Assembly: GCA_043778225.1 (NCBI GenBank)
Contig: JAYWGM010000098.1
Span: 1-62,536 of the forward strand
From: Deinococcales bacterium
GTDB lineage: Bacteria > Deinococcota > Deinococci > Deinococcales > JAAFIG01
DNA: 62,536 bases
Direction of reading: 5' to 3'
Numbering within the stretch: position 1 is the stretch's first letter; every line of letters starts with the position of its first letter. Of the stretch, positions 17,706-62,438 are shown piece after piece. The translations under genes were made by a program, and so were the position numbers. The notes beneath the pieces are model-generated. The model was not told where the DNA came from. It was given only the letters and a program-made list of their open reading frames with translations, and did no database searches.

Positions 17706-18090
17706 TTCAAAAGACCCCAACCGTTGGATTGAATATGCTGAAAATGACTACCAAGCAGCGTTTCAACTCAAAAACACCATTGCTTCATCTGCCGCTTTTT
17801 TATTTCATGCTTCTGTCGAAAAATACCTGAAAGCCGTACTGCTTTATCAGAAAAAAAGAGTCCCACAAATTCATGATATTGCAAAGCTGCTCGAGTTGGT
17901 CTCACCACAACTAACAACTCAATCTCGAGAACAACAAGCCGCGAAACTACTCGACATTATATTCAACTTCAGCCGATACCCAGATGACTTACTCGAGATG
18001 GGTTTAGAAGAAACAAGCAGTATTTACGAAGCCAGCACTGTGCTACGCGCCTATGCTCGAGGCGAATTGGGGCTAGAAGGAGATTTATGA
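17698..18090 (+). CDS. HEPN domain protein
   Basis: AENDY, EKYLKA, RVPQIHD, RYP; overlaps the MNT gene. Confidence 0.85.
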   Translation: MPDSKDPNRWIEYAENDYQAAFQLKNTIASSAAFLFHASVEKYLKAVLLYQKKRVPQIHDIAKLLELVSPQLTTQSREQQAAKLLDIIFNFSRYPDDLLEMGLEETSSIYEASTVLRAYARGELGLEGDL

Positions 18091-18569
18091 CATGGCAAGA
18101 CGTAATCATAGATAAAAGCCTACAAAACCTGCCGTACAAAATCGAATTAAGCAAAACAGGGAGAATCGAAATGAGTCCAGCTACCAACTGGCACGCCTAC
18201 TGGCAATACGAAATTGCGGGAATCCTACGTGAACAACTCCGCAGCCAAGGCATAGGCTTCACCGAAGCCAGCATAGACACCCCCGAGGGCGTAAAAGTAG
18301 CCGATGTCGCATGGGGCAGCCACGAATTTTTGGCTCGAGTTGGCATGAACACACCATTTTCAAACGCACCAGAACTCTGTGTGGAAATTATCAGCCCAAG
18401 CAACAGCAAAGAAGAAATAGCTCAGAAAGTACGGCTATACCTCGAGCAAGGCGCAAATGAAGTTTGGTTATGCGATTTGAACGGGAAAATAGAAATGCAG
18501 AACAAAGACGGGAAACTCGAGCAGAGTAAAATAGCACCAGAATTTCCAAAGCAACTCGAGAAGGTCTAA
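18087..18569 (+). CDS. Uma2-family endonuclease
   Basis: GVKVADVAW, APELCVEIISPSN, GANEVW. Confidence 0.88.
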   Translation: MTWQDVIIDKSLQNLPYKIELSKTGRIEMSPATNWHAYWQYEIAGILREQLRSQGIGFTEASIDTPEGVKVADVAWGSHEFLARVGMNTPFSNAPELCVEIISPSNSKEEIAQKVRLYLEQGANEVWLCDLNGKIEMQNKDGKLEQSKIAPEFPKQLEKV

Positions 18570-18580
18570 AAGGTGAAATC

Positions 18581-18808
18581 ATGAGCGTTAAAGAAAAGTT
18601 ACTCGAGAAAATAGAAACCATGACTCCAGCCGACCTTGAATGGCTAAATTCTGTACTCGAGGCACACGAGTACCCAGATATTCGTGTAGATTATGGTGAG
18701 GCAAAACGATTAGAAATGGTTGACATTATCGAAAAATTAGGCGCACCAAGCGACACAGACATGACCGACTTCAATAACTCAATTCAGCGCCGCCCTTGGA
18801 AATCATGA
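18581..18808 (+). CDS. Putative antitoxin (VapB-like)
   Basis: 75 aa, ATGA-coupled upstream of a PIN gene. Confidence 0.65.
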   Translation: MSVKEKLLEKIETMTPADLEWLNSVLEAHEYPDIRVDYGEAKRLEMVDIIEKLGAPSDTDMTDFNNSIQRRPWKS

Positions 18809-19215
18809 GATACACGCTCGATACCAATTTTATGTCCGCAATCATCAATCAAAATCATGATTGCATCCAGCGATTGGCTCGAGCCATCTTTGAAAAACAT
18901 GAAGTAACCTTGAACCCAATAGCTTATTTTGAAAGCAAACGCGGACTGATGAAACCACAGTATGCAAAAAAACTTGCTGAACTCGAGCGGATGGGACTGA
19001 CTTATCCAATGCTTACAGTCAATAAAGATGTAGCCGATACAGCCGCAAAAATCCAAGCTGATTTAGAACAAGCAGGAATGACGATTCACGAAATGGATAC
19101 TTTAATTGCAGCAACCGCAATAACGCACCAAGCCATAGTCATAACCAGAAATGTAAAGCACTTTGCTCGAGTACCAAGAATCAGGTTTGAAAATTGGGAG
19201 GATGAAACTGCCTAA
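18805..19215 (+). CDS. vapC: PIN-domain toxin (VapC family)
   Basis: YTLDTN, E, DTLIAATA, TRNVKHF. Confidence 0.9.
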   Translation: MRYTLDTNFMSAIINQNHDCIQRLARAIFEKHEVTLNPIAYFESKRGLMKPQYAKKLAELERMGLTYPMLTVNKDVADTAAKIQADLEQAGMTIHEMDTLIAATAITHQAIVITRNVKHFARVPRIRFENWEDETA

Positions 19216-19349
19216 GCTAAGGCAGAATGAAAATGGAAAACTCCAAACTGGTACAACAGCACCAGCGTTTTCAAAGAAACTAAAAAGGTCTAGGCAATGT
19301 GAGCATAACTCATGCTACAACAACAATTGACAAATTAAGGAGCATACAA

Positions 19350-19928
19350 ATGCCGAAAAAATTTGAAAAATGGGGAAACTTCGTTAAAAGCGCTGACACG
19401 GATTTGTTAGCCCTAGGAGTCTTACAGATTTCAGAGCAGCAAACCCTAGCAATTTATCATGGAGTACAGGCTTTAGAAAAATATTTAAAAGCTTTGAAAA
19501 TGTCAATTCTTGACCCGAGTGGCTCATTTGCAACAGCAGACACAGAGAAAAAGTGGATTAAAACTCATAGTCTATCAAAATTAGCTCAAAAATGTCAACC
19601 ACAATTTCCATTTTATATAGACCCTATTGTACTTAAAAATTTCAAAAAATACTCAGAATTTGACCAAGCCACACGGTATCCTTGGGTATTAACAGAACTA
19701 ACTAATGGAAATTCTACTGATGATTTGCGTTTAATCTTGGATTACATTAAACAAGCAAGACAAGATATTCCAATAACAAAAGACGATTATCCATTGGGTT
19801 TAAGTATCCGTGGTCATTTTCATAGGAAAAACGAACAAACTGCCAATGTAAGCCTTGGTGACCAATTTGCCGTTCTCACACTTCGTAAATTGCGGTCTGA
19901 CTTAGATGAATTTATACGCTGGCAATAA
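19350..19928 (+). CDS. Stand-alone HEPN domain protein, AT-rich
   Basis: QALEKYLKA, KTHSL, TRYP; AAGGAG RBS before MPKK. Confidence 0.75.
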   Translation: MPKKFEKWGNFVKSADTDLLALGVLQISEQQTLAIYHGVQALEKYLKALKMSILDPSGSFATADTEKKWIKTHSLSKLAQKCQPQFPFYIDPIVLKNFKKYSEFDQATRYPWVLTELTNGNSTDDLRLILDYIKQARQDIPITKDDYPLGLSIRGHFHRKNEQTANVSLGDQFAVLTLRKLRSDLDEFIRWQ

Positions 19929-19967
19929 GTACAAATACAATTAGTGATATGAATTTAAGGAGCAATT

Positions 19968-20348
19968 ATGAACATCCCATCCGACCTGCAATACCTCAAA
20001 TCCCACGAGTACCTTCGTCTCGAGGGCGACATCGCCACGATTGGCATTACCGACTTTGCCCAAGACCAACTTGGCGATGTTGTGTACGTCGAACTGCCCG
20101 AAGTTGGACGTATCGTCTCGAGCGGCGAAGCTGTGGCAGTGGTTGAAAGCGTCAAAACCGCTTCGGACATTTACAGCCCTGTCTCTGGTGAGGTGATCGA
20201 AATTAACTCGAGCCTGACTGACGAACCTGAAAACATAAATGCCGAACCTTACGGCAATGGTTTCTTATTCAAAGTCCAAGTGACCGACACCTCAAGCGAC
20301 CTGATGAACGCTGCTGCTTACCGCGAAGTTGCCGAAGCAGAGGCATAA
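19968..20348 (+). CDS. gcvH: Glycine cleavage H protein
   Basis: [19 protein letters not shown], lipoyl site VESVKTAS. Confidence 0.97.
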
Positions 20349-24354: not shown

Positions 24355-24858
24355 ATGACCATTCCGTTTGATTACTTGGTGCGCGAAGCCGAAAGCATTA
24401 ACGTCAAGCTCGAGATGATTGCTGGCGTGCCTGTTTGGGAAGCCAGTCCAGTCTTTAGACACCAACAAGCATCCCAACGCATTGCCACGAGTCTAAAGCC
24501 ATTACCAGACTCGAGTTGTGCTTGTATTCAGACGCAAGATACTTATTTTAAGTTTCCTGATGGTTCGCAAAAACGCCCTGATATTGCTGTTCTTTGCCAA
24601 GAACCGCCACTCGAGGCTCAGGATGCGCCGCTCGAGATGATCCCTGTCGCAGTGGTAGAAATCATCTCGAAGAATTACGAATACAAGGATTTAGTGCTTG
24701 CTCCACCGTTTTATCTCGAGGTTGGGGTTTTGGACATTCTGATTTTTAATCCAGCCGACAATTCGGTGCTGCATTATCGCCGTGACTTTGAGCAACCCAA
24801 GCAATACATTTCACCAATTACGCTGCAACTCGAGTGTGGTTGTGAAATCACAGTCTAA
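24355..24858 (+). CDS. Uma2-family endonuclease
   Basis: RPDIAV, VVEIISK; paralog of 13340-13825. Confidence 0.85.
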   Translation: MTIPFDYLVREAESINVKLEMIAGVPVWEASPVFRHQQASQRIATSLKPLPDSSCACIQTQDTYFKFPDGSQKRPDIAVLCQEPPLEAQDAPLEMIPVAVVEIISKNYEYKDLVLAPPFYLEVGVLDILIFNPADNSVLHYRRDFEQPKQYISPITLQLECGCEITV

Positions 24859-27122: not shown

Positions 27123-28133
27123 ATGGATAAAAAATTTCGGGTTGTTCTGGTTGGTTGTGGCAGCATGGCACACACTTGGGTTGAGTATGCCAAGACACGC
27201 GACGACACCAGCCTTGTGGCGGTGGTGGATATTCAGCTTGCAGCAGCCACTGCCCTGCTCGAGCGCCATGTTTTGACCTGCCAAGCCTTTACGAGCCTGA
27301 CAGAAGCCCTAAACGCCACCAATGCCAATCTGGTGTTTGATGTGACCATCCCCGAGGCACACGAAGAAGTGGTTCTAACCGCCTTAAAGGCTGGTTGTGA
27401 TGTCTTTGGCGAGAAACCCTTAGCCGCTTCTTTGGCAGCCGCACAAGGCATGGTCAAGACGGCACTCGAGACAGGTCGGACGTTTGCAATCATGCAGAAT
27501 CGGCGCTTTAACAATCAAATTCGAGCGTATCAAGATTTGATAAAAGTTATTGGCGATGTTGGTTTTTTGAGTGCCAATTTTTTTATTGCGCCACATTTTG
27601 GTGGTTTTCGTGAAGCCATGCAGAGTCCGTTGCTGCTCGATATGGCAATTCATACCTTTGATGCCGCCCGTTTTTTATCTGGTGCAGATGCGGTGTCGGT
27701 CTACTGCCATGAATTTAATCCTAAGGGTTCTTGGTACGCGGGTCATGCCAATGCCATCTGTATTTTTGAAATGTCGGATGGTTCTGTCTTTTCTTATAAC
27801 GGTTCATGGGCTGCCGAAGGCGCTTCTACCGCTTGGGAAGCCGAGTGGCGGGTGGTCGGTTCTCGAGGGACAGCCATTTGGGATGGTACAAACCCGCCAT
27901 TTGCCGAAATTGTTCAAAACCCAGAGCAAGAAAGTTTTATCAAAGACTACACTCGAGTAACAGCCATTGTGCCAACACTGCCAGAAGGACACCATGCTTG
28001 TTTGGAGGATATGTTTACGGCGCTGCTGGAAAACCTTGCGCCACAAACCATTTGCACCGATAACATCAAAAGTCTTGCGATGGTTTTTGCTGCCCTCGAG
28101 AGTTCGCGGCTTGGACAAAAAGTGATGCTTTAA
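27123..28133 (+). CDS. Gfo/Idh/MocA family oxidoreductase
   Basis: GCGSMA, GEKPL, QNRRF, DMAIHTFD. Confidence 0.9.
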   Translation: MDKKFRVVLVGCGSMAHTWVEYAKTRDDTSLVAVVDIQLAAATALLERHVLTCQAFTSLTEALNATNANLVFDVTIPEAHEEVVLTALKAGCDVFGEKPLAASLAAAQGMVKTALETGRTFAIMQNRRFNNQIRAYQDLIKVIGDVGFLSANFFIAPHFGGFREAMQSPLLLDMAIHTFDAARFLSGADAVSVYCHEFNPKGSWYAGHANAICIFEMSDGSVFSYNGSWAAEGASTAWEAEWRVVGSRGTAIWDGTNPPFAEIVQNPEQESFIKDYTRVTAIVPTLPEGHHACLEDMFTALLENLAPQTICTDNIKSLAMVFAALESSRLGQKVML

Positions 28134-28141
28134 CCCGAAAT

Positions 28142-29977
28142 TTACAATCTCCCCCAACCGATCCCAAAAGGCAATTCGGACTCGAGCCATTCTTGCAAAT
28201 TGGGTTTGAATAAAAAACGTTTTTCAAAATTAAATACACCAGATTCTAAACGCACAATCACTTCACGACTGGCAAAACGATTCGGATGCCGCAAAGCAAT
28301 CTGCTGCGGCTCGAGCTTAACCGCATGGCAATGCACAAAATCGGTGTTTTCAATGACTCGCCAGATTGCCCCAAGCCCAGCAAAAGCGTACAACTCGAGA
28401 ATAGAACCATGAAGCTCACAGCAATGCAGTACAGGCTCGAGACGCACAGGTAAACGCCCAACAGCTTCCCACCAATCCTTATGCAAGTTGCGTTCAACAA
28501 TCAGTTCATCATCTAATTCTGGGCGTAAAGTCTGCCAGTCCTCGAGACCAACCGTATGTTCTGGTTGTGAGGCGTACAAAACGCGGTGCTTAGGACTCAG
28601 ATGCGCTGGCAGCATTTGAAATCGCATGACCTGATTGCATAATTCATCCAATGGCTGACGGTCAGCCCCAAAGAACCGAATGGCATAAGGTTCAGTTCGC
28701 AATTTAACTTCGATATGCAGTTCGTCTAAATCAAAGTCTAAAGGGTACTCGAGTGCCATTTCGCCAGTCGAATCCCACTTTGCTTGCCAACGCTTACGTA
28801 CATAACGACCATCTTCTTTAATTCGGACTTCGGCAACTAGGCTACGACCCTCGAGTGGACGATGACTTAATTTTTCACCACGATGATCATAAAACGACCA
28901 TTCGAGTTCGGGTAAACAAAATAAGCGTTTGACACGAGCGGCTGGCTCATTTTCCACAAATACCTGCGCTGAGGTTTCACCGATATTTAAGCGAAAAGTA
29001 ACTTGGTTGCTTTTAAAATGAATTTCTTTCTCAGTCGTTCCACTTAGCTTTAAGACTCGAGTACCCATTGGTAAATCTGAAAATTTGAGTTCGACTTCGC
29101 TACCGACTTCGTAAGTATTATCCGAGTATTGAACTTCAACCTGAAATTCTTCTCGAGTCCGCTTGGGTTGCAGAACCTCATCTTCATCTGGTTCTTGTTC
29201 AATACGAATGAATTTGGGTTTGGCTTGAACAACTTTTAATTCACCACGCAATTGAACCAACAGCGTTTTTAAGGCTTTTTCGGCTTTGTTGCGAAAAAAT
29301 TCAATTGGATTGGGGTCAGAAAAAACAAATCCTGCTTCGTGTAAACGTTGGCTTAGGGTCTCGAGATGAGCGGTATCTACTCTATTTTTTAGGATAAATT
29401 CAATGGCTTCTCGTAAACCAGAAAAGATTCGGTTGTAAGAAGCACATTGGCGTACAGTTCGTTCAATTTCTTCGGGTGAAGCATCCACCAGCAATTTACG
29501 AATTAGCTCAGGAGTCATTTCAAACTGGGTAGCTTGAAAAAAGTACCGCCGAAACAGCTTCTCGAGTGTTTTTGCGTTTAGGCTTTTAATACCCCAAATG
29601 GCATCAATGGTTTTAACAAATTCCCGACGGTCATCTTGTACAAATAAATTCCTTATTCGAGAATCAGACTTTAATGCACGCTCGAGCAAATCACGATGAG
29701 TATTTTTTAAGGTACTTTGAAACTGAAGTTCGTGATGTAAATTTGACCAGAATTCACGTTCATTTTCACCAAGTTCACGAAAAAATGAGTAGCCACGAAA
29801 AAAGAGCAGTAACCTTTGGTAACTCGCTTGATTCCAACCCCAAGGTTGTTTCCATATCAATAAAATTTGTGGCAGCAGATGATTCCGATACTCGGTATAA
29901 CTGACTTCAACATTGATTGGATCATCACGTTCAAGTCGGCTCAGTAGATTTTTGTCAAGAATTTGGTCAAAACTCAT
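28142..29977 (-). CDS. Uncharacterised 611-aa protein, gene 4 of the helicase operon
   Basis: Long ORF, ATGA-coupled to 29974-30558; helical-looking N half and beta-rich C half; no motif recognised. Confidence 0.8.
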   Translation of the reverse strand: MSFDQILDKNLLSRLERDDPINVEVSYTEYRNHLLPQILLIWKQPWGWNQASYQRLLLFFRGYSFFRELGENEREFWSNLHHELQFQSTLKNTHRDLLERALKSDSRIRNLFVQDDRREFVKTIDAIWGIKSLNAKTLEKLFRRYFFQATQFEMTPELIRKLLVDASPEEIERTVRQCASYNRIFSGLREAIEFILKNRVDTAHLETLSQRLHEAGFVFSDPNPIEFFRNKAEKALKTLLVQLRGELKVVQAKPKFIRIEQEPDEDEVLQPKRTREEFQVEVQYSDNTYEVGSEVELKFSDLPMGTRVLKLSGTTEKEIHFKSNQVTFRLNIGETSAQVFVENEPAARVKRLFCLPELEWSFYDHRGEKLSHRPLEGRSLVAEVRIKEDGRYVRKRWQAKWDSTGEMALEYPLDFDLDELHIEVKLRTEPYAIRFFGADRQPLDELCNQVMRFQMLPAHLSPKHRVLYASQPEHTVGLEDWQTLRPELDDELIVERNLHKDWWEAVGRLPVRLEPVLHCCELHGSILELYAFAGLGAIWRVIENTDFVHCHAVKLEPQQIALRHPNRFASREVIVRLESGVFNFEKRFLFKPNLQEWLESELPFGIGWGRL

Positions 29978-30558
29978 TGTGTTACCTCAGTAATTTCAAG
30001 CCAACGTAAAAGTACCCATTGAGCAATTAAAAATCGTCTGGCTTGGACTAAATCAGGATTTTTACCTTGATAGGCTTGTTCCAGACAATCTTGAATTTCA
30101 AGTTGCCAGTGTGTAACTGCCGTCTGGACAGCTTCTTTTGGAGCTTGGTGTTCATGTCCGTAAATTGCTGGGAAATCATCTACGCTTTCAGCAAATTCAA
30201 GGGCGATGCTATGCCAAAATCCCTCTCGAGAAACCCTATTTTGAAGTTTTTTTAGCTGAATTTGTGCTTCCAGTAAAGAATTTTTAAGTAACTCTAAATT
30301 GTCTAACTCGGCAATTTTAGATTTGAGTAATTCAAGTTCAGAACGTAAATGACCGCTTTCCATCTCGAGTGTCGGTATGCGACTGGCTTGTGCGGCTTGC
30401 AATTTTAAGCTGTGATGCTCGAGCCTGAGTTTTTCAAGGCTTGACTCTAGCTCCAAGCGCTTTTGGCGTTCCTCTATCCGAAGTAGTTGTTCTTTTTGCC
30501 ATTCAGATTCATAAAAGTCTTTATGTTCCTGTAGGGTAATTCGTTCATTTTCGGTCAT
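29974..30558 (-). CDS. Coiled-coil protein, gene 3 of the helicase operon
   Basis: Heptad-rich N-terminal ~105 aa, small helical C-terminal domain (FLIAQWVLLRWLE); ATGA overlaps. Confidence 0.8.
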   Translation of the reverse strand: MTENERITLQEHKDFYESEWQKEQLLRIEERQKRLELESSLEKLRLEHHSLKLQAAQASRIPTLEMESGHLRSELELLKSKIAELDNLELLKNSLLEAQIQLKKLQNRVSREGFWHSIALEFAESVDDFPAIYGHEHQAPKEAVQTAVTHWQLEIQDCLEQAYQGKNPDLVQARRFLIAQWVLLRWLEITEVTQ

Positions 30559-31853
30559 GCTATGCCTCGGTAACGTGGTGACTCGAGTATGCCAAGTAAT
30601 TGCTTTAGAACATTTTCCTGACGAAAAACTTGGGATTTCAAAAATGTGGTTAATGGTAAATTTACCGAGTCAAGCAGCAGTTGCTCGAGACCAAGCAGTA
30701 ACACCCCTCGAATCTGATTTTTTGGGTCTGTAAAATCCGAATAATTGGTTTGAGTCAGCAGACTATTGTCATGGTTCAGAAATGCCTTATAAATTTCTAG
30801 CAATCGAATCAATCTTTGGGCGGGTTCAAACGATAAGTGGCGATAATCAATAATCAGAGCATTCTCGAGTTTATTGCTACCAATACTTTCTTGTTGTCCA
30901 CGTTCGCGCTGGGCGTACTCTTGAGCTAATTTCTTTTGGTTATTTTGGGCTTTTTCGAGTTCTTGAGTCAAATCGTTGTTGCGCTGGCGAAGCTGCAATC
31001 TGGCAGCATTAACTTCGAGCAAGGCTTGGGTTTTCTCGAGTAAATCAGCAGCTAAACGCTGGTTTGTTTGGCGTAAAGGTTCGAGCGTAAGTTCAGCTTG
31101 GTTAGCTTTGGCAGTAAGTAACTTGGTTACTTCCTCAATTTTAGTTTTGGTGGCAGCCGTTTCTTGTTGTTCTCGCGCCAATGAATCTTTTAGCCGAGTT
31201 ATTTGGGCTTTGAATTTTTTGGCTTCCTCAAGTTGTTTTTGTTGCTCTACACGAATAGCTTGTTGAATTTGAGTTGTGTGTGCTTGCTCGAGTCGCATCT
31301 TTTGTTGGGCTAACTCTTTTTGTTTGACTGCCTCGGCTTGCTCGAACTTACGTTTTACCTGCTCGAGTTCACGTTCAAGTTGTTGATTGCGTTGCTTTTC
31401 AGTGCGTAAATTCTGCTCAAGCTCAACTATTTGTTTGGTTTGTGTAGTGAGCCGACCTGACCAAATATCAGAAGATTCTTTACCTACTAAAAAATTAGCA
31501 ATCTCAAGAACTGCATTACTGGTTGTTTCGTCTATGGTTTGGTTATTCTCGAGTTTTTCAAGTGTAGCGCTTTGACTGTCAATCCAGATTTGGGCGTACT
31601 GCTCGAGAAGTTTTGGTTCTTGCTCACAGATTTTTGTTAGAGCATCAAGAATTTGCTGGCTGCGAATGTCAGCTAGTTTACTGACTTTAGCCCCAATTAA
31701 ACGTACTCCCATCGCTGGGGATTTACGGAAAAACTTGATGTAAATATCGGAAATTGTTTTCTGTGGCATCATTGTAATAGCTCGAGTCAAGTAATCGCTA
31801 TTTTCTAGCTCGAGCAGCTTATTTTTGTATTGTTCGATGTTTTCTGGGGTCAT
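30555..31853 (-). CDS. Long coiled-coil protein, gene 2 of the helicase operon
   Basis: Q/E/K-rich heptads over about aa 135-320 between globular ends; ATGA overlaps. Confidence 0.82.
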   Translation of the reverse strand: MTPENIEQYKNKLLELENSDYLTRAITMMPQKTISDIYIKFFRKSPAMGVRLIGAKVSKLADIRSQQILDALTKICEQEPKLLEQYAQIWIDSQSATLEKLENNQTIDETTSNAVLEIANFLVGKESSDIWSGRLTTQTKQIVELEQNLRTEKQRNQQLERELEQVKRKFEQAEAVKQKELAQQKMRLEQAHTTQIQQAIRVEQQKQLEEAKKFKAQITRLKDSLAREQQETAATKTKIEEVTKLLTAKANQAELTLEPLRQTNQRLAADLLEKTQALLEVNAARLQLRQRNNDLTQELEKAQNNQKKLAQEYAQRERGQQESIGSNKLENALIIDYRHLSFEPAQRLIRLLEIYKAFLNHDNSLLTQTNYSDFTDPKNQIRGVLLLGLEQLLLDSVNLPLTTFLKSQVFRQENVLKQLLGILESPRYRGIA

Positions 31854-34800
31854 ATCGTTTTACCTCGTTTGCCTGTTTTCTCGAGTTCTTGCAATCCATA
31901 TTCACTAATTTTATAAATTGGATGACCATTAAACTCAGCTTCATTCATCAGTTTTCGTCCCGTTAAGGTCTGAATGGCTTTTTCAATGTCGCTGTGGGTT
32001 GCACCTATCAGACTACCAAAATGTCTCGAGTTAGATTCAAACCATTTAAGTTGAATCGGGTGTTCCTGTCCGCCAAATTCGCTTTCAGCCCCACGCAGCA
32101 CCATCGAAATTCGGCGCGTACCTATTCCACTGTACTCAAGGTTAAAACTCGGGTCAGCTTTGCGCTTTTTCTCAATCCAAGCAAGACGTTCTTTGCGATG
32201 GTCGCGTAAAAACTCGAGAATGGCTCGGTTGGGTTTGAGGATTTGTACGATTTCATCATCGGTAATGCGTGGTGTGTCTGACCACGGCTTATAATCCTGG
32301 TTGCAATTACCGCAACACGTTTCTTTGTCACGTTTTGGGTCGGCCCGTTCAGCAAAGACTTTGAGTAGTGAGTCGCGTTTGCAAGCACTGACACTCGCAT
32401 ATTGTTTGATGGCTTGTATGCCAATTTTTCGTTCTTGGAATCGTTTTTCAATCACTCGAGAAAACTCGGTCAAATCGGGGTTTGTCTCGGCTTTGATTTC
32501 AATGCTGGATTCAAAAGTTGCAAAAAACAAAGAGGGGTCAGCAATTTGACGGCGCAACTCGTGCAGCGCGTCGCTGAGGGCATTGGCTTCTGCTTTCGGC
32601 AATTCCGTAAAATCTATCCAATGCCTCTGTCGAGCCTTGCTAATCGAGGTTATTTTTAATTTCTCGAGACTTATAAGATTTTCTGCCCCTAAATCTTGCA
32701 GCACTGACCACTGACTAATAAATAACTGGGCTTTACCGAGTTCATAGGTGTAATCAAGCAGTTTGCTTTGCTGCATGGTATTTAGTAGCCACAGCACCCC
32801 TTCTGGCTCGAGGTCAGCTTTTTGCTCGTCGGTGCTTAAAATTTCGTTAATGGCTTCTTGGATTTTATCGTTGTACATTCGGATTGTGCCTTTGTTTTTG
32901 CGTAATAACTCGAGCAAGGCTTCGGCATGGTACTTTTGGGGTTGTCCAAGCTGCCCGATGTATTCGTGCAAACTCCAATCTCGGCTCGAGTGCATCAGTA
33001 CGGCGTAAGCTGGTTTGTGGTCACGTCCCGCCCGTCCTGCTTCTTGAACATAAGCGGGTATGTTGCTGGGTGGCTCGAAGTGAATCACGGCTCGAACATT
33101 GGTTTTATCCACACCCATACCAAAGGCGTTGGTGGCGACAATCACTTTGTTTGTACCTTCAATAAAATGATCTTGAATTTCACTGCGAATCACTGCCGAT
33201 AAACCACCGTGATAGGCTTCAATCACTTGTCCCGTGTAGGTGCTTAAAGCTCGAGCCACGGTTTCGGCTTTTTTGCGAGTGGATACATAAACAATAATGG
33301 CGTAGTCGTCTTTAAATTTTTCGGCTGCCCAAGTCAGAATTTGGATGGTGCTGCGAAGTTTGCTGCGGTCATCGCTACGATCATCTCGTTTCCCCGGAAA
33401 ATGTTCCGCATGGTATTCGATGTTTGGGCGGTTGCTGCTGTCCCAAATGGCTTCTTGGACATTCAGGTTCAGATTTTTTTGCAAGTCATCACGCACTGCT
33501 TGGGTTGCAGTGGCAGTCAGGCAGACCGTTGGCAATTTTAAGCCAATCTCAGCAATTTTACTTTTCACCCGCAGGTAATCAGGGCGAAAATCATGTCCCC
33601 AATCCGATAAACAATGGGCTTCGTCATAAACAAGGCGTTTAAGTTTCCCTTTGGAAGCCAAGCGCAATAGCACTTGCTGGAGGTCATTATTCTTGTTGAC
33701 TCGCTCTGGGCTAAGGTACAACAAATTGACATCACCTTTTTCGGCTTGCTCGAGAATACTGCGTTGCTCTGCGCCTGGAATCCCAGAGTAAATAGCGGCG
33801 ACTGGCGCTCCTCGATCTTTCAAACCCTGCACTTGGTCTTTCATCAGGGCAATTAGTGGCGATATGACAATTGTTAGCCCACCCTCGAGAATGGCTGGTG
33901 CTTGAAAGGTAAGGCTTTTCCCATAACCAGTTGGTAGCAGCACAAGTGCATCTTGTTTGTTAATCGCAGCTTCAATAGCTTGTTGTTGTTTGGGTTTGAT
34001 CTCTCGCCCCTCAGTCCAATACAAGCGCATTAGCTCCGCAAGCGCAGCTTTCAACGAAATGGTTTTGCTTGCCCATTTTTCTCGTAACTCGAGTAAGTCC
34101 TTGGTGGTTTTATCCATTAGTGTCTCTTCAAAGCCACTAAAATTGATGCCCAGAATTTCTTCTAATTTTTTGTAAAACTCAATTCGACTCTTGGGTTTAT
34201 GCACTTGGTCGCCGTCAATAAATTTTCGTGGCAAAGATTCTAGAACATCAAAGTAATATGTGGAGGTTAAAATTCGTCTATCCCACAGAACAAATGCGCC
34301 ATTGCCCGATAGCGCTCGGTCATCGCGGATTAAACGTCCGAAGGCTTGGGTAAACGTCAGTAAGGCTTTGCCAAGGTAATATGTCCAAGCAGCATCACGT
34401 CCATGCGCTTTTTCGATTCTGGCTTTGCGTTTCTCGAGCAGAGGTGTCGGTGTCGGAAACGGAATCCGCTCGAGTGCCACAAGGTTCAGGTCGTAAAAAT
34501 CTACGCCTTCCATAAAGGCTCGAGTACCAAGTGCCACGGCTTTATCGCTACGCTTATTAACATCGCTGAGTGCCTGAGAAACAGCTTCGCGTTCACGGCG
34601 AGTCAGTGGGGCATGGAGTCTTCCCACGATTTCGGATTCTTTTTCTAGCACTTTCTTGGTTTTCTCGAGCCGACTTCGGGCAGTAAATAAGTTCAGGCTT
34701 CGGTTAATTTGTGGTAATAAATTTTTCAGTTCTTCTTGGTGCAGTTTTTGGAATCGTTCCATGCTCGACATTCGTGCTTCGGGCAAATGTGATGGCAGCA

Positions 34801-37141
34801 GAATATGGGCGCGGTCATACGGCAATGTTTCCTCGAGTCGGCGTTTTTGAATCTCACCAAGGTACAAAACGCTGGTAAAATACTCAAATTCGTCTTTTTC
34901 GCCGGGCAACAAAGTTGCACTGGTTAGTGTGACACTTTTAGCGCGTTCCCAAAGCGGTTTTAGAAATTGCTCGAGGTCAATTGGTTGGGCAACGTGTTCC
35001 CAGTTATTCTTGGCATCTAGGGTGGTTAAGTATAACCAATCATCGTCAGGTTCAATCTCTGTGTCTGAGGTTTGTTGGTTTTGATTGCTTTTGGTAGCTT
35101 CAAGGCGCTCTTGCAGCATTTCATTGTGTTGCTTGAAAAATTCTAAGGTCGGCTCGAGTTTGAATCTTATTTGATGGGCTTGGCGCACGAATTCGTACAA
35201 TGCAGCTTGAAGGTTTTGCATCGCTTCACGCCAGCGTTTTTCATAAAGAATCAGACGCATCCACTCTGGGGTTTTCATACTTTTTAAGGTGTAGGTTAGC
35301 CCATACTCGATTTCGCCTTTGCCAAATTGTTTAACGAACTGGGTCATCTCGCGGTGATATTCGTTAAACCGCTCAAAGGCTTCAGGAATCAGTCTTTGGC
35401 GCACATGGGTCGCAAGTTCAAGTACCGTGGTTGCATTTTTACCAAGCTGCTCGATTAACTTTTGGCTGTTCAGCAAAATACTACCGTCGGTCAAGCGATT
35501 ACTTGCCAATACCCCTTTTCGAGTCCGTGCATCAAACAATTTCCGCAGATGAAAAACCACATCTTCGGATTTGGAGATTCTGGTAAAGCTATTGGTGGCG
35601 ACATCCTCGAGATTATGGGCTTCATCTATGACCAGATGAAAGGCTTTTTCTTCGACACTTTCGGTATTGGAGTCATCTCGAGACTGGGCTAAACGACTGA
35701 GTAAATAGGCTTGATTGGTAATCCAAAGGCTGCTGGTACTGCGTTGCCGCACATCGGTTTGATAAGCACAGAACTTATAAAATGGGCATTTTTCACGGCA
35801 TCGGCTCGAGACGGTTTGAACATTAAATTTGAGCTCTCGGTAGGCACTCGAGGCTTGCCAATAAAACGGTAAGCTCTCGAGATCAAATTCAGAATTGCGA
35901 ATTAACGCTACCAGCACGGCTCGAGCCGCACCGCCCTGACGAAAATCATCGTCTTCTTCGGGTTTATACTCGAGAATGCTTTCTTCGAGCGCTTCGGTAC
36001 AAATCGAATCCCTGGCGCTTTTGACATTGCTGGCTTTAACGCTGTAGCCCTTAGCGGCAATCTCGCGCAGTTCGTTCATGGCTTGTTCTTGCAGTACCTT
36101 GGTGTGCGTGGCAACAATAATCGTTTCGTTGGACGTATGACTCTGATGATACAAAGCTGGAAAAATGTAGCCTTTGGTTTTACCTGTGCCAGTTGGAGCT
36201 TGAATCATGGCTTTTGGGTTTCGTTCCTCAAAGGCTGCCGTGACCATATGCGCCATTTCGCCTTGAGGGGCGCGGTACTTGGGTAAGTGTTTTTGCATGG
36301 TTTTTAAGGACTCGATTTGTTGGACATCAAAACCATTTGGGACGCGGTTGTGTTTAAGCTCCTCGAGTGCCGTATTGAGTTGCTCCAAACTAAAAAGATT
36401 CTGCTCGAGACCTGTTTTGACCCAAGCTGGAAACAAATCTTTTGAAGCTGGGAATGCCAGTCCTGTAGAATTGAGGAAAGGCACTTGGGCTTCGATTTCT
36501 AGCGCTGCCCGTAATTCAGTCTCGAGGTTAAGTGCTATATCTGGGTAAAACCGTGCTTCTGGTAAGTCCAGCATCTTCCATAAACGCATTTGGATGGCAT
36601 CAGATGGTGGTTTAGCAATCAGACGCTCGAGAACAGTGCGAGTGGCTTTACAGTCCTCTAAGGCTTGGTGAGCGCCTTCCATATCCAGACTTGTAAAGTA
36701 CCGAAACAAATGCCCGACTGAATAACCAAGCAAACCCTCGGGTGGTGTTGGGAATAACAGGTGCGACCAACGCAAAGTGTCCACAGCATTTTTCACGCCA
36801 ACAGGTTCGGGCAAATCAGCTTCTTTTAGAACTCGAGTCAGAATTGGCAAGTCATACTCGTAGATATTATGCCCACACAGCACAGCATCACCAATAAACT
36901 CGAGAAAATCTTGTAAAGCGTGTTCGATGGGAATTTTACCAGCTTCGTATTCGGCATAATCAATGTGCTGGAAAGCATAAAGGTCTTGGCGCAGCTTAGT
37001 TTTGGTTTCAAGAAAACGATGAAAAGTACGTTCACCACAAATTGCAGCCAATTCGACAATCTCGGCTTTTCCTGTATCTGTGTCGGTTGTCTCAAGATCA
37101 AAAATGACTAACTTAGCGCTATCCAAGACCGTATTTTGCAT
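31850..37141 (-). CDS. Fusion of DEDDh 3'-5' exonuclease, DinG-type Fe-S SF2 helicase and RecQ-type helicase
   Basis: Exonuclease: FDLETT, GHNI..YD, HQALED. DinG: QAPTGTGKT, four Cys, IDEAHNL, TSATL, EGVD, QAFGRLIR. RecQ: LPTGYGKS, DEAHC..WGHDFRPDY, TATAT, ATNAFGMGVDK, QEAGRAGRD, C..CCGNC. Confidence 0.92.
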   Translation of the reverse strand: MQNTVLDSAKLVIFDLETTDTDTGKAEIVELAAICGERTFHRFLETKTKLRQDLYAFQHIDYAEYEAGKIPIEHALQDFLEFIGDAVLCGHNIYEYDLPILTRVLKEADLPEPVGVKNAVDTLRWSHLLFPTPPEGLLGYSVGHLFRYFTSLDMEGAHQALEDCKATRTVLERLIAKPPSDAIQMRLWKMLDLPEARFYPDIALNLETELRAALEIEAQVPFLNSTGLAFPASKDLFPAWVKTGLEQNLFSLEQLNTALEELKHNRVPNGFDVQQIESLKTMQKHLPKYRAPQGEMAHMVTAAFEERNPKAMIQAPTGTGKTKGYIFPALYHQSHTSNETIIVATHTKVLQEQAMNELREIAAKGYSVKASNVKSARDSICTEALEESILEYKPEEDDDFRQGGAARAVLVALIRNSEFDLESLPFYWQASSAYRELKFNVQTVSSRCREKCPFYKFCAYQTDVRQRSTSSLWITNQAYLLSRLAQSRDDSNTESVEEKAFHLVIDEAHNLEDVATNSFTRISKSEDVVFHLRKLFDARTRKGVLASNRLTDGSILLNSQKLIEQLGKNATTVLELATHVRQRLIPEAFERFNEYHREMTQFVKQFGKGEIEYGLTYTLKSMKTPEWMRLILYEKRWREAMQNLQAALYEFVRQAHQIRFKLEPTLEFFKQHNEMLQERLEATKSNQNQQTSDTEIEPDDDWLYLTTLDAKNNWEHVAQPIDLEQFLKPLWERAKSVTLTSATLLPGEKDEFEYFTSVLYLGEIQKRRLEETLPYDRAHILLPSHLPEARMSSMERFQKLHQEELKNLLPQINRSLNLFTARSRLEKTKKVLEKESEIVGRLHAPLTRREREAVSQALSDVNKRSDKAVALGTRAFMEGVDFYDLNLVALERIPFPTPTPLLEKRKARIEKAHGRDAAWTYYLGKALLTFTQAFGRLIRDDRALSGNGAFVLWDRRILTSTYYFDVLESLPRKFIDGDQVHKPKSRIEFYKKLEEILGINFSGFEETLMDKTTKDLLELREKWASKTISLKAALAELMRLYWTEGREIKPKQQQAIEAAINKQDALVLLPTGYGKSLTFQAPAILEGGLTIVISPLIALMKDQVQGLKDRGAPVAAIYSGIPGAEQRSILEQAEKGDVNLLYLSPERVNKNNDLQQVLLRLASKGKLKRLVYDEAHCLSDWGHDFRPDYLRVKSKIAEIGLKLPTVCLTATATQAVRDDLQKNLNLNVQEAIWDSSNRPNIEYHAEHFPGKRDDRSDDRSKLRSTIQILTWAAEKFKDDYAIIVYVSTRKKAETVARALSTYTGQVIEAYHGGLSAVIRSEIQDHFIEGTNKVIVATNAFGMGVDKTNVRAVIHFEPPSNIPAYVQEAGRAGRDHKPAYAVLMHSSRDWSLHEYIGQLGQPQKYHAEALLELLRKNKGTIRMYNDKIQEAINEILSTDEQKADLEPEGVLWLLNTMQQSKLLDYTYELGKAQLFISQWSVLQDLGAENLISLEKLKITSISKARQRHWIDFTELPKAEANALSDALHELRRQIADPSLFFATFESSIEIKAETNPDLTEFSRVIEKRFQERKIGIQAIKQYASVSACKRDSLLKVFAERADPKRDKETCCGNCNQDYKPWSDTPRITDDEIVQILKPNRAILEFLRDHRKERLAWIEKKRKADPSFNLEYSGIGTRRISMVLRGAESEFGGQEHPIQLKWFESNSRHFGSLIGATHSDIEKAIQTLTGRKLMNEAEFNGHPIYKISEYGLQELEKTGKRGKTI

Positions 37142-37149
37142 ATGTTTGA

Positions 37150-37182
37150 ATTATAACGCTTGCGTGTCGCATATTCGTCGCA
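37150..37182 (-). promoter_or_regulatory. Putative promoter of the helicase operon: TATAAT plus a TGCGAC direct repeat
   Basis: Minus strand reads TGCGAC-N5-TGCGAC-N10-TATAAT-N8-ATG. Confidence 0.55.
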
Positions 37183-37256
37183 TTCAGTATAAAACCCTGA
37201 TAGCTATAAAATTACTTGAGCTTACTTAACTCAAGTACAAAAAAATTGAGCCTTTA

Positions 37257-39710
37257 CTATTTTTTACGTACAACCCCGCGCACTGCCTGAGCAGTGTACG
37301 GGTCTTCTGCCCACGAATGCTTTGGGTATTTGATTTTTAGTTCGCGGCGCACATTGGGGTACGTATTTTTCCAGAAACTACTTAAATCCTGTGTGACTTG
37401 AACGGGTCGGTAAGCTGGGCTGAGAAGATGCAGCAGCACTGGATTGCGTCTATCATTAACGCTTGGGGTCTCGAGCAAGCCAAAGACTTCTTGGAGGCGC
37501 ACCGCCAGCACGGGCGCAGCGCCATCCAAGTGGTACTCGAGCCGAATCTGGCTACCACTCGGGACAAGCATTTTGGCTGGAGCGAACGTGTCTATTTGGC
37601 GCTGAATTTCCCATGGCAGACTTTGCTCGAGGATGACACGCAAATCAAGGCGGGTAAAATCGGCTTGGCGGCGGACTGGCTCGAGGTGTGGGGCTAACCA
37701 AGTCTCGAGGCTTTCGAGTAATGCCATATCCGAAAAATCCGGGAAAGCATCACCACGCCACAGATGCAGACTCTGAACTCGAGCTTGAAATTGTCGTGCA
37801 TTTTCTGACCACTCGAGCAAGTTTGGGTTCGCCCGAATGGCTTGGCACAGCACACGGTTTTTCTCGAGCATTGGAATAGTAAGCAGTGGTTTAGATTCCA
37901 GTATCAGTTCACCGATTCGGATTTCGGTTCGGGCAATCAGTGCGCCTTCTCGAGTATCCCAACGCAGCACCTCAAGGCTTGTACAAAACGGCTCGAGGTC
38001 TTGGCTCTCGAGCGGGGCGCACAAAAAGACTTTGCCTTCTTCGCTGCCCGCATCGGCTTGAGCAACCGCCAACCACGGCGTACTCTGCAATGGGTCGGAA
38101 GCTGGGAGTTGCACGCCGCGCCCCAAGGCGAGTTTGTAGCGGCGACTCTCGCCTGTTCGCAAGTTTGCAATTCGGTCTGGGTACGCCAGCGCCACAAGTT
38201 TTCCAACCTCAGCATGATTAAATTCGGTAGTCTCGAGTTTGGTTTTAAGAAGTTTTGCCCACTGCTGTGCCACCCGTTCAACTCGGTCTAGGCGCTGTTT
38301 ATCGGCTTCAAAAATTCGTTTGCCCAGTCGGGCAGCCCGTAAGGCTTGGACTCGAGTGCCAAGGTCGGTGCTGTCGGATTCTAAAAAATCGCGTTCCTCG
38401 AGTATCGCTGCCACATCGGCTGCCAGCCCCGCCAAACCTAGGCGCTGCCCCTCGAGTGCCAAATGTGCCAAACGCGGATGGGCTGGAAAGCGCAACATCG
38501 CTTGCCCACGGGTGGTGATGCGGTTGTTTTCGATTGCGCCAAGCCGATTTAGCAGGTCGTTGGCTTTCTCAAGGGCTGTGGGGGCTGGGGGCGTAACCCA
38601 CTCGAGGTTCTGAGCGCCCCAAGCGGCAAGCTCGAGCGCAAGCGGCGCTAAGTCGGACTCGAGAATTTCTGGTTTTCTGGTTCTTTCAAGGCTGGCGTGT
38701 TGGCTTTGTGTCCAAAGTCGGTAGACAATTCCAGCTTGGGTACGCCCAGAGCGTCCAGCCCGTTGGGTGGCTGCGTCAACAGTCACACGCACCGTCTCGA
38801 GCCGCGTCAGGCTGCTCTGTGGGTCAAACCTTGGCACTCGAGCCACACCGCTATCCACCACAATTCGCACCCCTTCGATCGTCAGGCTGGTCTCGGCAAT
38901 GCTAGTGGCAAGCACAATTTTGCGCTTGCCATGTGGGTCGGGCAAAATCGCTTTGGTCTGGGCATCCAAGCTCAGTTCGCCGTACAGAGGCAACACCACT
39001 GCGCCGCAGTCCTCGAGCATTTCCATACAGCGCAAAATTTCGCCAGCCCCAGGCAAAAATGCCAGAATATCGCCAGTCTCGGCTTCGAGCGCTCGAAAAA
39101 TGCTTTGGGCAACTCGGTTTGGGATTGGTGTCTCGAGTTGTTTTGCTGCATAACGAATTTCGATTGGGTAGGAGCGCCCCTCGGCGCGAATAATCGGCGC
39201 ATTCAGTACACTCGAGAGGTGCTGACCATCGAGCGTGGCGCTCATGATGATGATTTTTAAGTCTGGGCGAATTTCGCGTTGAATCTCGCGGCACAGTGCC
39301 AAGGCTAAATCGGCATGGATACTGCGTTCGTGAAACTCGTCAAAAATAACACAGCCCACACCCTCGAGCGTCGGGTCGTCTTGCAACTGGCGGGTTAAAA
39401 GCCCTTCAGTCAGGACAAAAAGCTGGGTTTGGCTCGAGACAACTTTTTCAAAACGCACCTGATAGCCAACGCGCTGCCCAACATTTTGCCACAGTAAACT
39501 TGCCATGCGGGTTGCTACGCTTCTGGCTGCCAAACGACGCGGCTCGAGCATGATCATTTTGCCTTGGATTTGCCCGAGTAAAAAAAGTGGCAACAGCGTA
39601 CTTTTACCCGCTCCTGGGGGGGCTTCTATAATCAAGGTCTGGTTGGTCTCGAGTTGGGCGGCAAGCTCGGGGAGGATTGATTCGATTGGCAGTTGAAACT
39701 TATCAGACAT
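37257..39710 (-). CDS. hrpB: ATP-dependent RNA helicase HrpB
   Basis: APPGAGKS, EPRRLAAR, DEFHER, MSATL, ATSIAETSLTI, QRAGRSGR, C-terminal YPKHSW. Confidence 0.95.
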   Translation of the reverse strand: MSDKFQLPIESILPELAAQLETNQTLIIEAPPGAGKSTLLPLFLLGQIQGKMIMLEPRRLAARSVATRMASLLWQNVGQRVGYQVRFEKVVSSQTQLFVLTEGLLTRQLQDDPTLEGVGCVIFDEFHERSIHADLALALCREIQREIRPDLKIIIMSATLDGQHLSSVLNAPIIRAEGRSYPIEIRYAAKQLETPIPNRVAQSIFRALEAETGDILAFLPGAGEILRCMEMLEDCGAVVLPLYGELSLDAQTKAILPDPHGKRKIVLATSIAETSLTIEGVRIVVDSGVARVPRFDPQSSLTRLETVRVTVDAATQRAGRSGRTQAGIVYRLWTQSQHASLERTRKPEILESDLAPLALELAAWGAQNLEWVTPPAPTALEKANDLLNRLGAIENNRITTRGQAMLRFPAHPRLAHLALEGQRLGLAGLAADVAAILEERDFLESDSTDLGTRVQALRAARLGKRIFEADKQRLDRVERVAQQWAKLLKTKLETTEFNHAEVGKLVALAYPDRIANLRTGESRRYKLALGRGVQLPASDPLQSTPWLAVAQADAGSEEGKVFLCAPLESQDLEPFCTSLEVLRWDTREGALIARTEIRIGELILESKPLLTIPMLEKNRVLCQAIRANPNLLEWSENARQFQARVQSLHLWRGDAFPDFSDMALLESLETWLAPHLEPVRRQADFTRLDLRVILEQSLPWEIQRQIDTFAPAKMLVPSGSQIRLEYHLDGAAPVLAVRLQEVFGLLETPSVNDRRNPVLLHLLSPAYRPVQVTQDLSSFWKNTYPNVRRELKIKYPKHSWAEDPYTAQAVRGVVRKK

Positions 39711-59900: not shown

Positions 59901-60083
59901 ATGATTCAAAACCCGTACACCTCGAGTAAACCTGCCGAAGAAGTAGCGCAGGAACTTCTCGAGCAAGGAATTTATGGCGAATTGCGAGATGCCTTAGCTG
60001 CGGTTAAACGTGCCAGAAGTGGTAAATCTAGGTTAGGGCGAACAGCAGTATTTCCAAATGGACAAATTACCAAAGTGGCATAG
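59901..60083 (+). CDS. Small hypothetical protein
   Basis: ATG 4 nt after the previous stop; 60 aa. Confidence 0.45.
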   Translation: MIQNPYTSSKPAEEVAQELLEQGIYGELRDALAAVKRARSGKSRLGRTAVFPNGQITKVA

Positions 60084-60190
60084 GATAATTCACTTGCATA
60101 TTTGCATAGTTTTTGAACTTAAACTAGCTAATTTTTATAGTAATAAACTATTCACTTGACAAAATTAACTATTTTGTGTATCATTCTCTC

Positions 60191-60865
60191 ATGAATTTAA
60201 AACTTTCAACTAATCCTTTTGACCGCGCTGTATCTGACACTATCCCACTTTTTGTTTTGTTCGATCTAGTAACTGAGATACGCAACGCATATCGAGTTGC
60301 TGCCTCCGAAACTCTTGAAAACCCATTATTTTCTGCTGGTATTACTTCCGAACATTTCCCTCAAGAAAGACGGTTTAGAGTTCAACAAGCCTTAGTAACT
60401 ATTGCACTGAAGCATTCACGATTTTTAAAGTATGACGAGAAAAAAACTAAGCCAAAAGGTGGCAGATTTGTTACTCTAGTGGCTGAAAATCTGTTGCTAA
60501 TAGAGAAATTCTTATCTAATCCTTCAAAATTGCCAGTACGAAAGTATGTAAGTTATTTAACAGCACAACCAAGTATTTTTGAGCCAGAATTAGAAAGCAA
60601 AGACCCAATCTTTGCAGTTATTATTCACGGCTATGATAAAATTTCGATTTTTCCAGATGCACCCGACTTTATTGATATTATTTTCCCCGACCCTGTTGAC
60701 CCAGCAAACCTGAAATCTGCGTTACATAGAATTAAATTAATGGATTTAGAATTTACTCCTACATTAGAAGAATCAATTCCGGTAGTTCCTGAAACTGTTA
60801 TCACACTTAAAAGTGAGGTGGAGTTACCCTCGGAAGTTGACCCCGAACGAGGTGAATTAAAGTGA
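60191..60865 (+). CDS. Hypothetical protein coupled to the XRE-metallopeptidase gene (candidate toxin/effector)
   Basis: AT-rich; GTGA overlap with the next gene; TATCAT-N6-ATG. Confidence 0.7.
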   Translation: MNLKLSTNPFDRAVSDTIPLFVLFDLVTEIRNAYRVAASETLENPLFSAGITSEHFPQERRFRVQQALVTIALKHSRFLKYDEKKTKPKGGRFVTLVAENLLLIEKFLSNPSKLPVRKYVSYLTAQPSIFEPELESKDPIFAVIIHGYDKISIFPDAPDFIDIIFPDPVDPANLKSALHRIKLMDLEFTPTLEESIPVVPETVITLKSEVELPSEVDPERGELK

Positions 60866-61998: not shown

Positions 61999-62438
61999 AC
62001 GGGAACGTTCTAGGCTCGAGAATAATTTGCTCGAGCCACGGCTTTTGTATGGGCTATACAGAATTAATCTCCCTCGAGTCCAGTCCAACTGTGCTACTGT
62101 TCCCCTGTAAACCCCGAATGTCCCTCTGGCGCTGAAAATGCGTGTACGGCTTCGGGGTATCGTCTTGTTTATGGCTTTTCTCATTTTGCTGCATGGCTAA
62201 GTTTACATGGATTTGTGCTGCTCAAGCCTCAGCTTTTGCCGCTAGATGCTAGATTATTTCCATGTTGCTGACCCTAACGCTTGACCCTGCGCTCGAGCAA
62301 CGGCTTTTGCTTGAGCATGGGCTGCCACTCGAGATGTGGTTGGCTCAAGACTTAAAATCTCGTTTTCAAGCCGATGTTTGAGGAAACTGTTTTGCTGCAA
62401 AGAATTTCTTTGGGGCTGCCTGAGTCTTTTTGGTTGTC

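Follow-up and report, generated by a model that had tools for sequence, protein, structure and literature searches.

The subject of this report is a four-gene operon in a 62,536-nucleotide stretch of DNA from a Deinococcales bacterium (contig JAYWGM010000098.1), referred to throughout, at its full length, as the window. Gene 1 encodes a single chain in which a DEDDh exonuclease is fused to a DinG-type and a RecQ-type helicase, and it is followed by three smaller genes, here called genes 2, 3 and 4. The operon is probably an undescribed mobile four-gene helicase-nuclease defence module. This is the best reading because the partner genes are conserved, an empty site exists, and defence genes occur in the neighbourhoods of the operon. 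If a role in defence is granted, the chances are about even that the two motors, judged by their families, would travel coupled on opposite strands. The complete proposal can only be tentative: a single-chain bipolar superfamily 2 (SF2) helicase-nuclease that reached the motor plan of RecBCD independently and is the effector of a four-gene anti-phage system with a DruH-like sensor made of immunoglobulin-like (Ig) domains, present in Thermus HB27 and absent from HB8. A preliminary description had presented gene 1 as one polypeptide with two helicase motors and a nuclease; the fusion protein itself stands, while the three downstream partners and the mobile defence-island setting had been overlooked.

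Gene 1 is a 1763-codon open reading frame (ORF; 37141 to 31850) free of internal stops. Domain calls on the window proteins with Pfam, NCBIfam and PADLOC, together with structure prediction, place a DEDDh domain, a DinG motor, a RecQ core, a zinc site and an RQC winged helix on one chain (Table 1). The preliminary description had proposed intact DEDDh motifs, a full DinG module with a Walker A near 36176-36202 and a full RecQ module with a Walker A at 33914-33937; all five DEDDh residues, the four iron-sulfur (FeS) cysteines and DEAH box of DinG, the RecQ zinc cysteines and both copies of motif VI were located. The typeIV_DinG model of PADLOC matches the chain (E 1e-72). The RecQ core scores 333.9 bits with TIGR00614 (cut-off 219.8) and matches E. 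coli RecQ (1oyw, E 7e-63). The zinc site is displaced relative to the RecQ family layout by an insertion that is present in 111 of 111 homologues (183-238 amino acids (aa) from motif VI to the zinc cysteines), a stretch that the fold search barely probed. While the RecQ_Zn_bind model (PF16124) is matched below its cut-off (E 0.001, 20.1 against 25 bits), the zinc cysteine columns are kept in 104-111 of 113 homologues. The winged helix, probable in the preliminary description, is backed by a predicted structure of residues 1385-1763 (predicted local distance difference test (pLDDT) = 93), in which it came closest to the WRN RQC domain in a search of 48,161 chains (Z 10.7, root-mean-square deviation 3.1, 101 aligned residues). 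A Pfam scan of gene 1 found no HRDC domain after it. The best solved matches of the exonuclease domain (window 36635-37108) are the 195-aa proteins 9l85/9l87 and 9mrc/9mrd (E 7e-16 to 5e-11).

Two of four public contig sets, possibly the source of this DNA, cover positions 27500-38000 whole, at even depth and with zero differences. This includes the DinG-RecQ junction near 34050-34200, which the preliminary description had considered a possible chimera, and a contig from a related Deinococcales metagenome-assembled genome also crosses it (residues 438-1154, 91% identity). Full-length homologues are encoded on 21 complete plasmids, with 21 of 23 plasmid matches spanning at least 80% of the protein. 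Among the best 120 homologues listed, the majority are full-length proteins, from Thermus, Meiothermus, Marinithermus, Deinococcus and the Chloroflexota; members of the homologue cluster are also named Acidimicrobiaceae and Blastocatellia. An assembly chimera or chance fusion is excluded by the junction-crossing contigs, the complete plasmids with the full-length gene, and the congruent trees described next.

From those best 120 homologues, 113 of at least 1500 residues were retained, a number that counts the query. In 112-113 of these the catalytic positions are intact: the five DEDDh residues and, in each motor, the Walker A lysine, the Walker B pair and the motif VI arginine pair. There is no sign in the sequence that either motor is dead. 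The single-strand-binding motifs of DinG and all ATPase motifs are likewise retained. Strong selection on the exonuclease and both motors is thereby supported. Trees of the DinG and RecQ modules (111 sequences of more than 1600 residues) have 81 of 108 splits in common, and none of the 68 well-supported DinG splits clashes with a well-supported RecQ split. Across 111 homologues, the spacing between motif VI of DinG and the Q-motif of RecQ stays within 105-125 aa. Since the trees are congruent and the linker length is held, the comparison supports co-evolution of the two modules, as expected for a single machine. The fusion, by these measures, is old, stable and selected as one unit.

The architecture has been in print since 2005, when the three modules were noted in Thermus HB27 TT_P0128 under the heading of DNA repair. 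Deide_06510 was listed in 2009 as "Multidomain protein: DnaQ/DinG/RecQ", under DNA repair and beside a UvrD gene (PMC2669436), and appears in a zinc-protein table (PMC7907104); three Thermus papers count TT_P0128 as a RecQ (PMC11143384, PMC9751324, PMC5529391). TT_P0128 (TT_RS10770, WP_011174436.1) and Deide_06510 have the same three modules in the same order as gene 1 (36% identity over 98% of the length) and no essential difference; the protein described here is an orthologue. In HB27 the fusion is also followed by the three genes that follow it in the window, in identical order (L070, loci and genomes being given by L and G numbers). In a transposon sequencing (Tn-seq) study of HB27, TT_P0128 was classed as "Highly Permissive" and as shell genome, with values of +0.95 to +2.05 in all four libraries, and is thus dispensable without stress; gene 4 (TT_P0125) was "Intermediate" (-0.44 to -0.67 across the four), and the downstream genes were labelled Smc and BglG (PMC13140390). 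A biochemical or functional study of the fusion was not found in the literature, most subscription papers being outside reach, and the accessible parts of PMC6300522, PMC11232893, PMC13316683 and bioRxiv 10.1101/2022.05.11.491447 contain nothing on it. The word RecQ never occurs in a 2025 review of DinG (PMC11981726). The possibility raised earlier that the architecture is already well characterised is therefore half right: it is published, and no characterisation was found. Nor do the accessible parts of the TT_P0128 and Deide_06510 literature, limited to annotation and a Tn-seq class, treat the downstream genes as partners of the fusion. What is known is the architecture, annotated 20 years ago; what is new is the conserved partner operon, its empty site and its defence neighbourhoods.

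Genes 1 to 4 are chained by overlapping stop and start codons. None of genes 2, 3 and 4 matches a family above cut-off in Pfam, NCBIfam or PADLOC. The proteins of genes 2 and 3 are coiled coils whose C-terminal domains are conserved; gene 2 found only coiled-coil matches in the ESM Atlas, all below 0.9, and a complex prediction of its C-terminal domain with gene 3 scored 0.01.

Among 364 Deinococcota genomes, a tally that includes the unpublished genome G324, the fusion was found in 35 (29 of 263 high-quality genomes, 14 of 60 genera), with 329 lacking it at the threshold used. Thirty-five loci were taken from the 33 fusion genomes outside this genus. The order helicase, gene 2, gene 3, gene 4 occurs in 21 of these loci (gene 3 being scored in 20), while in 12 Deinococcaceae loci an unrelated gene of 550-900 residues stands directly behind the fusion; one further locus has a UvrD-like gene in that place and one is ended by a contig edge. 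As the partner profiles were built from the same loci, only order and adjacency are informative in these counts. Gene 4 was found in 29 of the 364 genomes, 23 of which also have the fusion. In the remaining 12 genomes with the fusion, the alternative partner is present instead, and the two partner types occur together in none of the 35. Four of the six genomes with gene 4 and no fusion match were inspected: the C-terminus of the fusion lies at a contig end in G212, gene 4 is by itself on the contig of G135, G181 retains no more than a fragment and G208 has no usable ORF.

The operon also appears to move. In the same-genus genome G130 (94% complete), the Gfo oxidoreductase, M20 peptidase and hrpB genes form one uninterrupted run without the operon, and G132 carries the operon at the same site as the window. 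The M20 peptidase gene that follows Gfo in G130 and G132 (L072:8692-10293) is missing from the window, where the operon stop lies 8 bases from the Gfo stop (28136-28142). Genes 2-4 have a GC content at third codon positions of 0.30-0.37 and gene 1 has 0.44, compared with a genome median of 0.50 and a 5th percentile of 0.36. On the HB27 plasmid pTT27, the four genes sit between cas3 and cmr genes. When flanking ORFs of at least 200 residues were counted, a clear defence gene (type I, III or ISP restriction, GmrSD, Cas, CBASS, SIR2 or DUF499, and DISARM DrmA in one) was found beside 12 of the 35 loci and an integrase, transposase or Rep gene beside 11. For comparison, 20 control windows of 11 kb were set at fixed positions on the chromosomes of ten of the same genomes, and four of them were left out because of a residue cap. 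The other 16 had neither defence nor mobility genes (0/16 for each; p = 0.005 and 0.009), and in matched genomes the counts were 5 of 10 and 0 of 16, respectively; the contrast is weakened by the controls being chromosomal while many test loci are on plasmids, by the kinship of the loci and by categories that were set after the hits.

Gene 4 is predicted to consist of a helical domain (pLDDT = 80-90) followed by beta-sandwiches that match fibronectin type III (Fn3) and Ig domains, a common fold, with Z up to 9.0. The top ESM Atlas match is a YjiT_N cluster (0.91, 192/256 features), and YjiT is the family of DruH, which has three Ig-like domains and is the likely sensor of Druantia III (bioRxiv 10.64898/2026.05.12.724681). 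When an N-terminal profile of gene 4 (51 sequences) was compared with one of DruH (38/114 sequences), the two aligned in register along 120 columns (E 0.0055). The score, 27.6, is higher than those of all 100 block shuffles, of the reversed profile and of 15 unrelated profiles. Against the single E. coli YjiT sequence, the gene 4 profile gives E 0.032. No match was found between gene 4 and PDB sequences, no DruH entry is among the fold matches listed for it, and distant gene 4 relatives of about 1000 aa have no match to YjiT. A likeness of gene 4 to DruH is probable from these profiles; the operon itself is not Druantia. Nine distant relatives (725-1003 residues) have the gene 4 N-terminal domain in common. 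In the single locus recovered for them, a metagenomic one (L071:3713-13024), a 140-aa gene, a 469-aa coiled coil and a 1472-aa DpdJ/DruE-like helicase precede a 1007-aa gene 4 relative, and a RAMP gene adjoins. The arrangement may represent a sister system that uses another helicase; its small and coiled-coil genes have no significant match to genes 2 and 3.

DinG helicases move 5'-3' and RecQ helicases move 3'-5'. In the mechanism proposed, gene 4, with the coiled-coil proteins of genes 2 and 3 as adaptors, would sense infection or restrain the enzyme until it is needed. The gene 1 enzyme would load at a DNA end or fork, where RecQ would follow the 3'-ended strand and DinG the opposite strand, so that both advance into the duplex. 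Behind the motors, the DEDDh domain would digest the freed 3' end, that is, the strand tracked by RecQ. The 3' strand would be destroyed and a 5' single strand would remain, blocking circularisation, recombination and replication of phage or plasmid DNA. A 3'-5' exonuclease fits the destruction of foreign DNA rather than resection in the manner of RecBCD, because it would digest the 3'-ended strand, which is needed for the loading of RecA. The earlier suggestion of a single-chain analogue of RecB and RecD that feeds the exonuclease thus holds for the motor plan at most, the expected outcome being the opposite one.

RecBCD has SF1 motors of opposite polarity on separate subunits, a PD-(D/E)XK nuclease and control by Chi, and leaves a 3' tail. 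Gene 1 resembles it in having two motors of opposite polarity, as taken from their families, and one nuclease; it differs from RecBCD and AddAB in having SF2 motors on a single chain with a DEDDh 3'-5' exonuclease. With ExoDinG, the DinG of S. aureus and B. subtilis, gene 1 has in common an N-terminal DEDDh domain joined to DinG, including all five DEDDh residues. Gene 1 differs in its four intact FeS cysteines and in 780 more residues that include RecQ, and it scores below the cut-offs of both TIGR01407 (225 against 547.7 bits) and the housekeeping RecQ equivalog TIGR01389 (358 against 640). With PsyrTA and RqlH-RqlI it shares a RecQ-like helicase that lacks HRDC and always has a partner, and the PsyrT model matches aa 1036-1432 (E 9e-87); it differs by its added exonuclease and DinG and by the absence of a DprA-like partner (Pfam) or a PsyrA match (PADLOC). 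Type IV-A CasDinG, as defined in PMC11981726, is accompanied by csf/cas genes and has a pseudo-FeS domain; gene 1 has four FeS cysteines, and genes 2-4 match no Cas model. In Druantia III a large SF2 helicase-nuclease likewise stands beside a protein with a helical N-terminus and an Ig array. DruE, a helicase-nuclease that loads on 3' tails, combines a YprA-like motor, an MrfA zinc module and a PLD nuclease (bioRxiv 10.64898/2026.05.12.724681), so it has one motor with PLD where the fusion has two with DEDDh. DruH is about 1100 aa compared with the 611 aa of gene 4, and the operon has two extra coiled-coil genes. Pfam found neither DUF1998 nor PLD in the window operon at E 0.1, and DruE is not among the 25 of 47 PADLOC families listed.

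The operon might instead encode an accessory repair or fork enzyme, with DinG and the exonuclease acting on crosslinks or R-loops, RecQ acting on forks, and the partners as a scaffold, all carried on megaplasmids. Such a role is unlikely. Both papers that named the fusion file it under DNA repair, and S. aureus ExoDinG, which has 5'-3' helicase and 3'-5' exonuclease activity, needs both in crosslink repair (PMC12345164). UvrD-family genes accompany the fusion at 13 of the 35 loci, this 89%-complete genome has no match to PDDEXK_1, the nuclease of RecB and AddAB, and the fusion is the only DinG-type gene found in Deinococcaceae and Thermales. A repair enzyme would sit less easily with its absence from 329 of 364 genomes, with the separate RecQ genes of this genome (two further RecQ-like genes, on C15 and C28), with its dispensability in unstressed HB27, or with neighbours that include restriction-modification, Cas, CBASS, SIR2 and integrase genes. 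The tail left by a 3'-5' nuclease would also be the wrong one for RecA. A short DinG that stands alone (about 520-540 aa; L103:6957-8540 in G130) is near-core in two Deinococcota families (16/18 and 124/128 genomes with any DinG match, G324 included) and was not found in Deinococcaceae or Thermales genomes that lack the fusion. That it is missing here is uninformative, since the whole region, including PNPase, is outside this assembly.

Less probable still is a genotoxic helicase-nuclease that its partners restrain in the manner of RqlH-RqlI or PsyrTA; on release the enzyme would kill or arrest the cell, or it would stabilise the replicon that carries it. The PsyrT match to the RecQ core is in keeping with such a role, as is the helicase never being found partnerless in 35 genomes, and the opposite signs of the helicase and gene 4 values in the HB27 Tn-seq data give a weak hint that losing gene 4 is costly. 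Gene 4 is nonetheless "Intermediate" and not essential there, the expected DprA-like partner is missing, locus L066 has neither partner type, and in L045 and L035 gene 2 is interrupted while the helicase is whole.

A slim chance is left for two motors that are not coupled, working in sequence, with separate substrates (R-loops or RNA-DNA hybrids for DinG, forks or G-quadruplexes for RecQ), or with one serving as an ATP-driven clamp only. Earlier work reported no helicase activity for S. aureus DinG and described it as a DinG turned nuclease (PMC3270479; also PMC11981726), and clades that lack the FeS cysteines exist; the constant linker, the congruent trees, the retained single-strand-binding motifs of DinG and the retained ATPase motifs all speak for coupling.

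For the favoured reading, a mobile defence module with coupled motors, a number of observations count on the other side. The defence role, though probable, is drawn from genomic context, and S. aureus ExoDinG acts in repair (PMC12345164). PADLOC names no system for the operon, 23 of the 35 loci have no clear defence neighbour, the window flanks are hrpB and the Gfo oxidoreductase with no defence gene, and locus L046 adjoins recA/cinA. Because the FeS cysteines are absent from 10 of the 113 homologues, which are distant members, the DinG motor may not unwind in every case. As for gene 4, its hhalign probability with DruH is only 6.6%, the best block shuffle (26.9) falls narrowly short of the real score, the Atlas template modelling (TM) score against the 996-residue YjiT_N cluster is 0.43, it has no counterpart of the C-terminal half of DruH, and the PADLOC DruH models match neither gene 4 nor its relatives while a true DruH scores E 0.

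Table 1. Coordinates of the operon and its features in the window.
Feature	Position	Strand	Details
Gene 1, DEDDh exonuclease-DinG-RecQ fusion	31850..37141	-	1763 aa
DEDDh 3'-5' exonuclease domain	36635..37108	-	aa 12-169; D15, E17, D97, H158, D163; RNase_T PF00929, E 3e-11
DinG/XPD-type SF2 motor	34199..36292	-	aa 284-981 (DinG scan start 274/284); Helicase_C_2 813-971; Walker A 36199-36176, K321; four FeS Cys, C381/C448/C452/C458; DEAH D506-E507; motif VI 932-939
Inter-motor linker	34004..34198	-	aa 982-1046; crossed by contigs
RecQ-type SF2 motor core	32972..34003	-	aa 1047-1390 (family scan 1047-1403); Walker A 33937-33914, K1075; DEAHC-WGHDFRP from 1172; motif VI 1366-1374
Insertion between RecQ motif VI and zinc site	32462..32944	-	~160 aa; predicted alpha/beta, winged-helix-like element order
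RecQ zinc-binding site	32303..32458	-	aa 1562-1613; C1587/C1609/C1610/C1613
RQC winged helix	31862..32269	-	aa ~1625-1760; predicted structure and fold match
Gene 2, coiled-coil protein with conserved C-terminal domain	30555..31853	-	432 aa; start overlaps gene 1 stop
Gene 3, coiled-coil plus helical protein	29974..30558	-	194 aa; start overlaps gene 2 stop
Gene 4, helical N-terminal domain (1-252) and Ig/Fn3-like beta-sandwiches	28142..29977	-	611 aa; weakly like YjiT/DruH
Probable promoter	37142..37212	-	TATAAT 8 nt before ATG; TGCGAC twice, 11-base spacing; both kept in locus L003 of a relative
Terminator-like hairpin after hrpB	37213..37237	-	1 found, 0.3 expected; separates hrpB from operon

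The placement of the TATAAT element upstream of gene 1 suggests a possible leaderless message, with the TGCGAC repeat as a possible regulator site; a sigma-70 scan did not detect this promoter. No radiation-response motif was found upstream of gene 1, the window having 21 matches compared with 22.9 by chance. As a partner, hrpB was rejected: it is kept in 5 of 5 same-genus genomes searched, four of which have no fusion gene, and the terminator-like hairpin lies 3' of it.

The alternative operon (L054-L065) encodes a 550-900-aa partner with a beta-rich middle, duplicated in L065. The C-terminal domain of this partner is common to helicase-nuclease proteins of about 1730 aa (MTES_1575 in the one checked, with a weak DUF3320 match). 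It is not a fusion of genes 2-4, to which it has no similarity (probability 0.1-0.3%). Decay is seen at three loci: gene 2 is split by a TnpB-bearing insertion in L045:10089-13315 and by a frame change in L035:6406-8795, and the fusion and partner are fragmented in L062:5517-13472. In the nearest relative, G132, a divergent gene 2-like ORF stands ahead of gene 4 in place of gene 3 (L079:3227-4294). In G015, a second copy of the fusion is in head-to-head orientation with an ORF of more than 1820 aa (L066:1-5463), and that ORF has a RecQ-like motor at its C-terminus. The UvrD-family genes vary in orientation (L037, L038, L041, L054-L057, L060, L063-L066, L068), with a PcrA Tudor domain in the two best checked and PD-(D/E)XK in L041; the window locus has none. 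In four Thermaceae loci (L047, L050, L053, L077), vWA and Tubulin_2 genes come after the operon, with a WYL/WCX regulator in two. Elsewhere in the window, GC content is also low at 18001-20000 and 60001-62000 (0.41 and 0.37), and a 167-aa ORF (24355-24858, + strand) presumably resembles a Uma2-type endonuclease.

If the favoured reading is true, this protein would be a machine of natural origin that carries two helicase motors of opposite polarity on one chain, and it would offer a direct route to the study of motor coupling. A Thermus gene counted as a RecQ repair helicase would be recast as a defence effector, and the tie of a YjiT/DruH-like sensor to a different effector would mean that helicase defence systems exchange modules. 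Testing these ideas is made quick by a thermostable copy and by a natural pair of strains, HB27 with the operon and HB8 without it.

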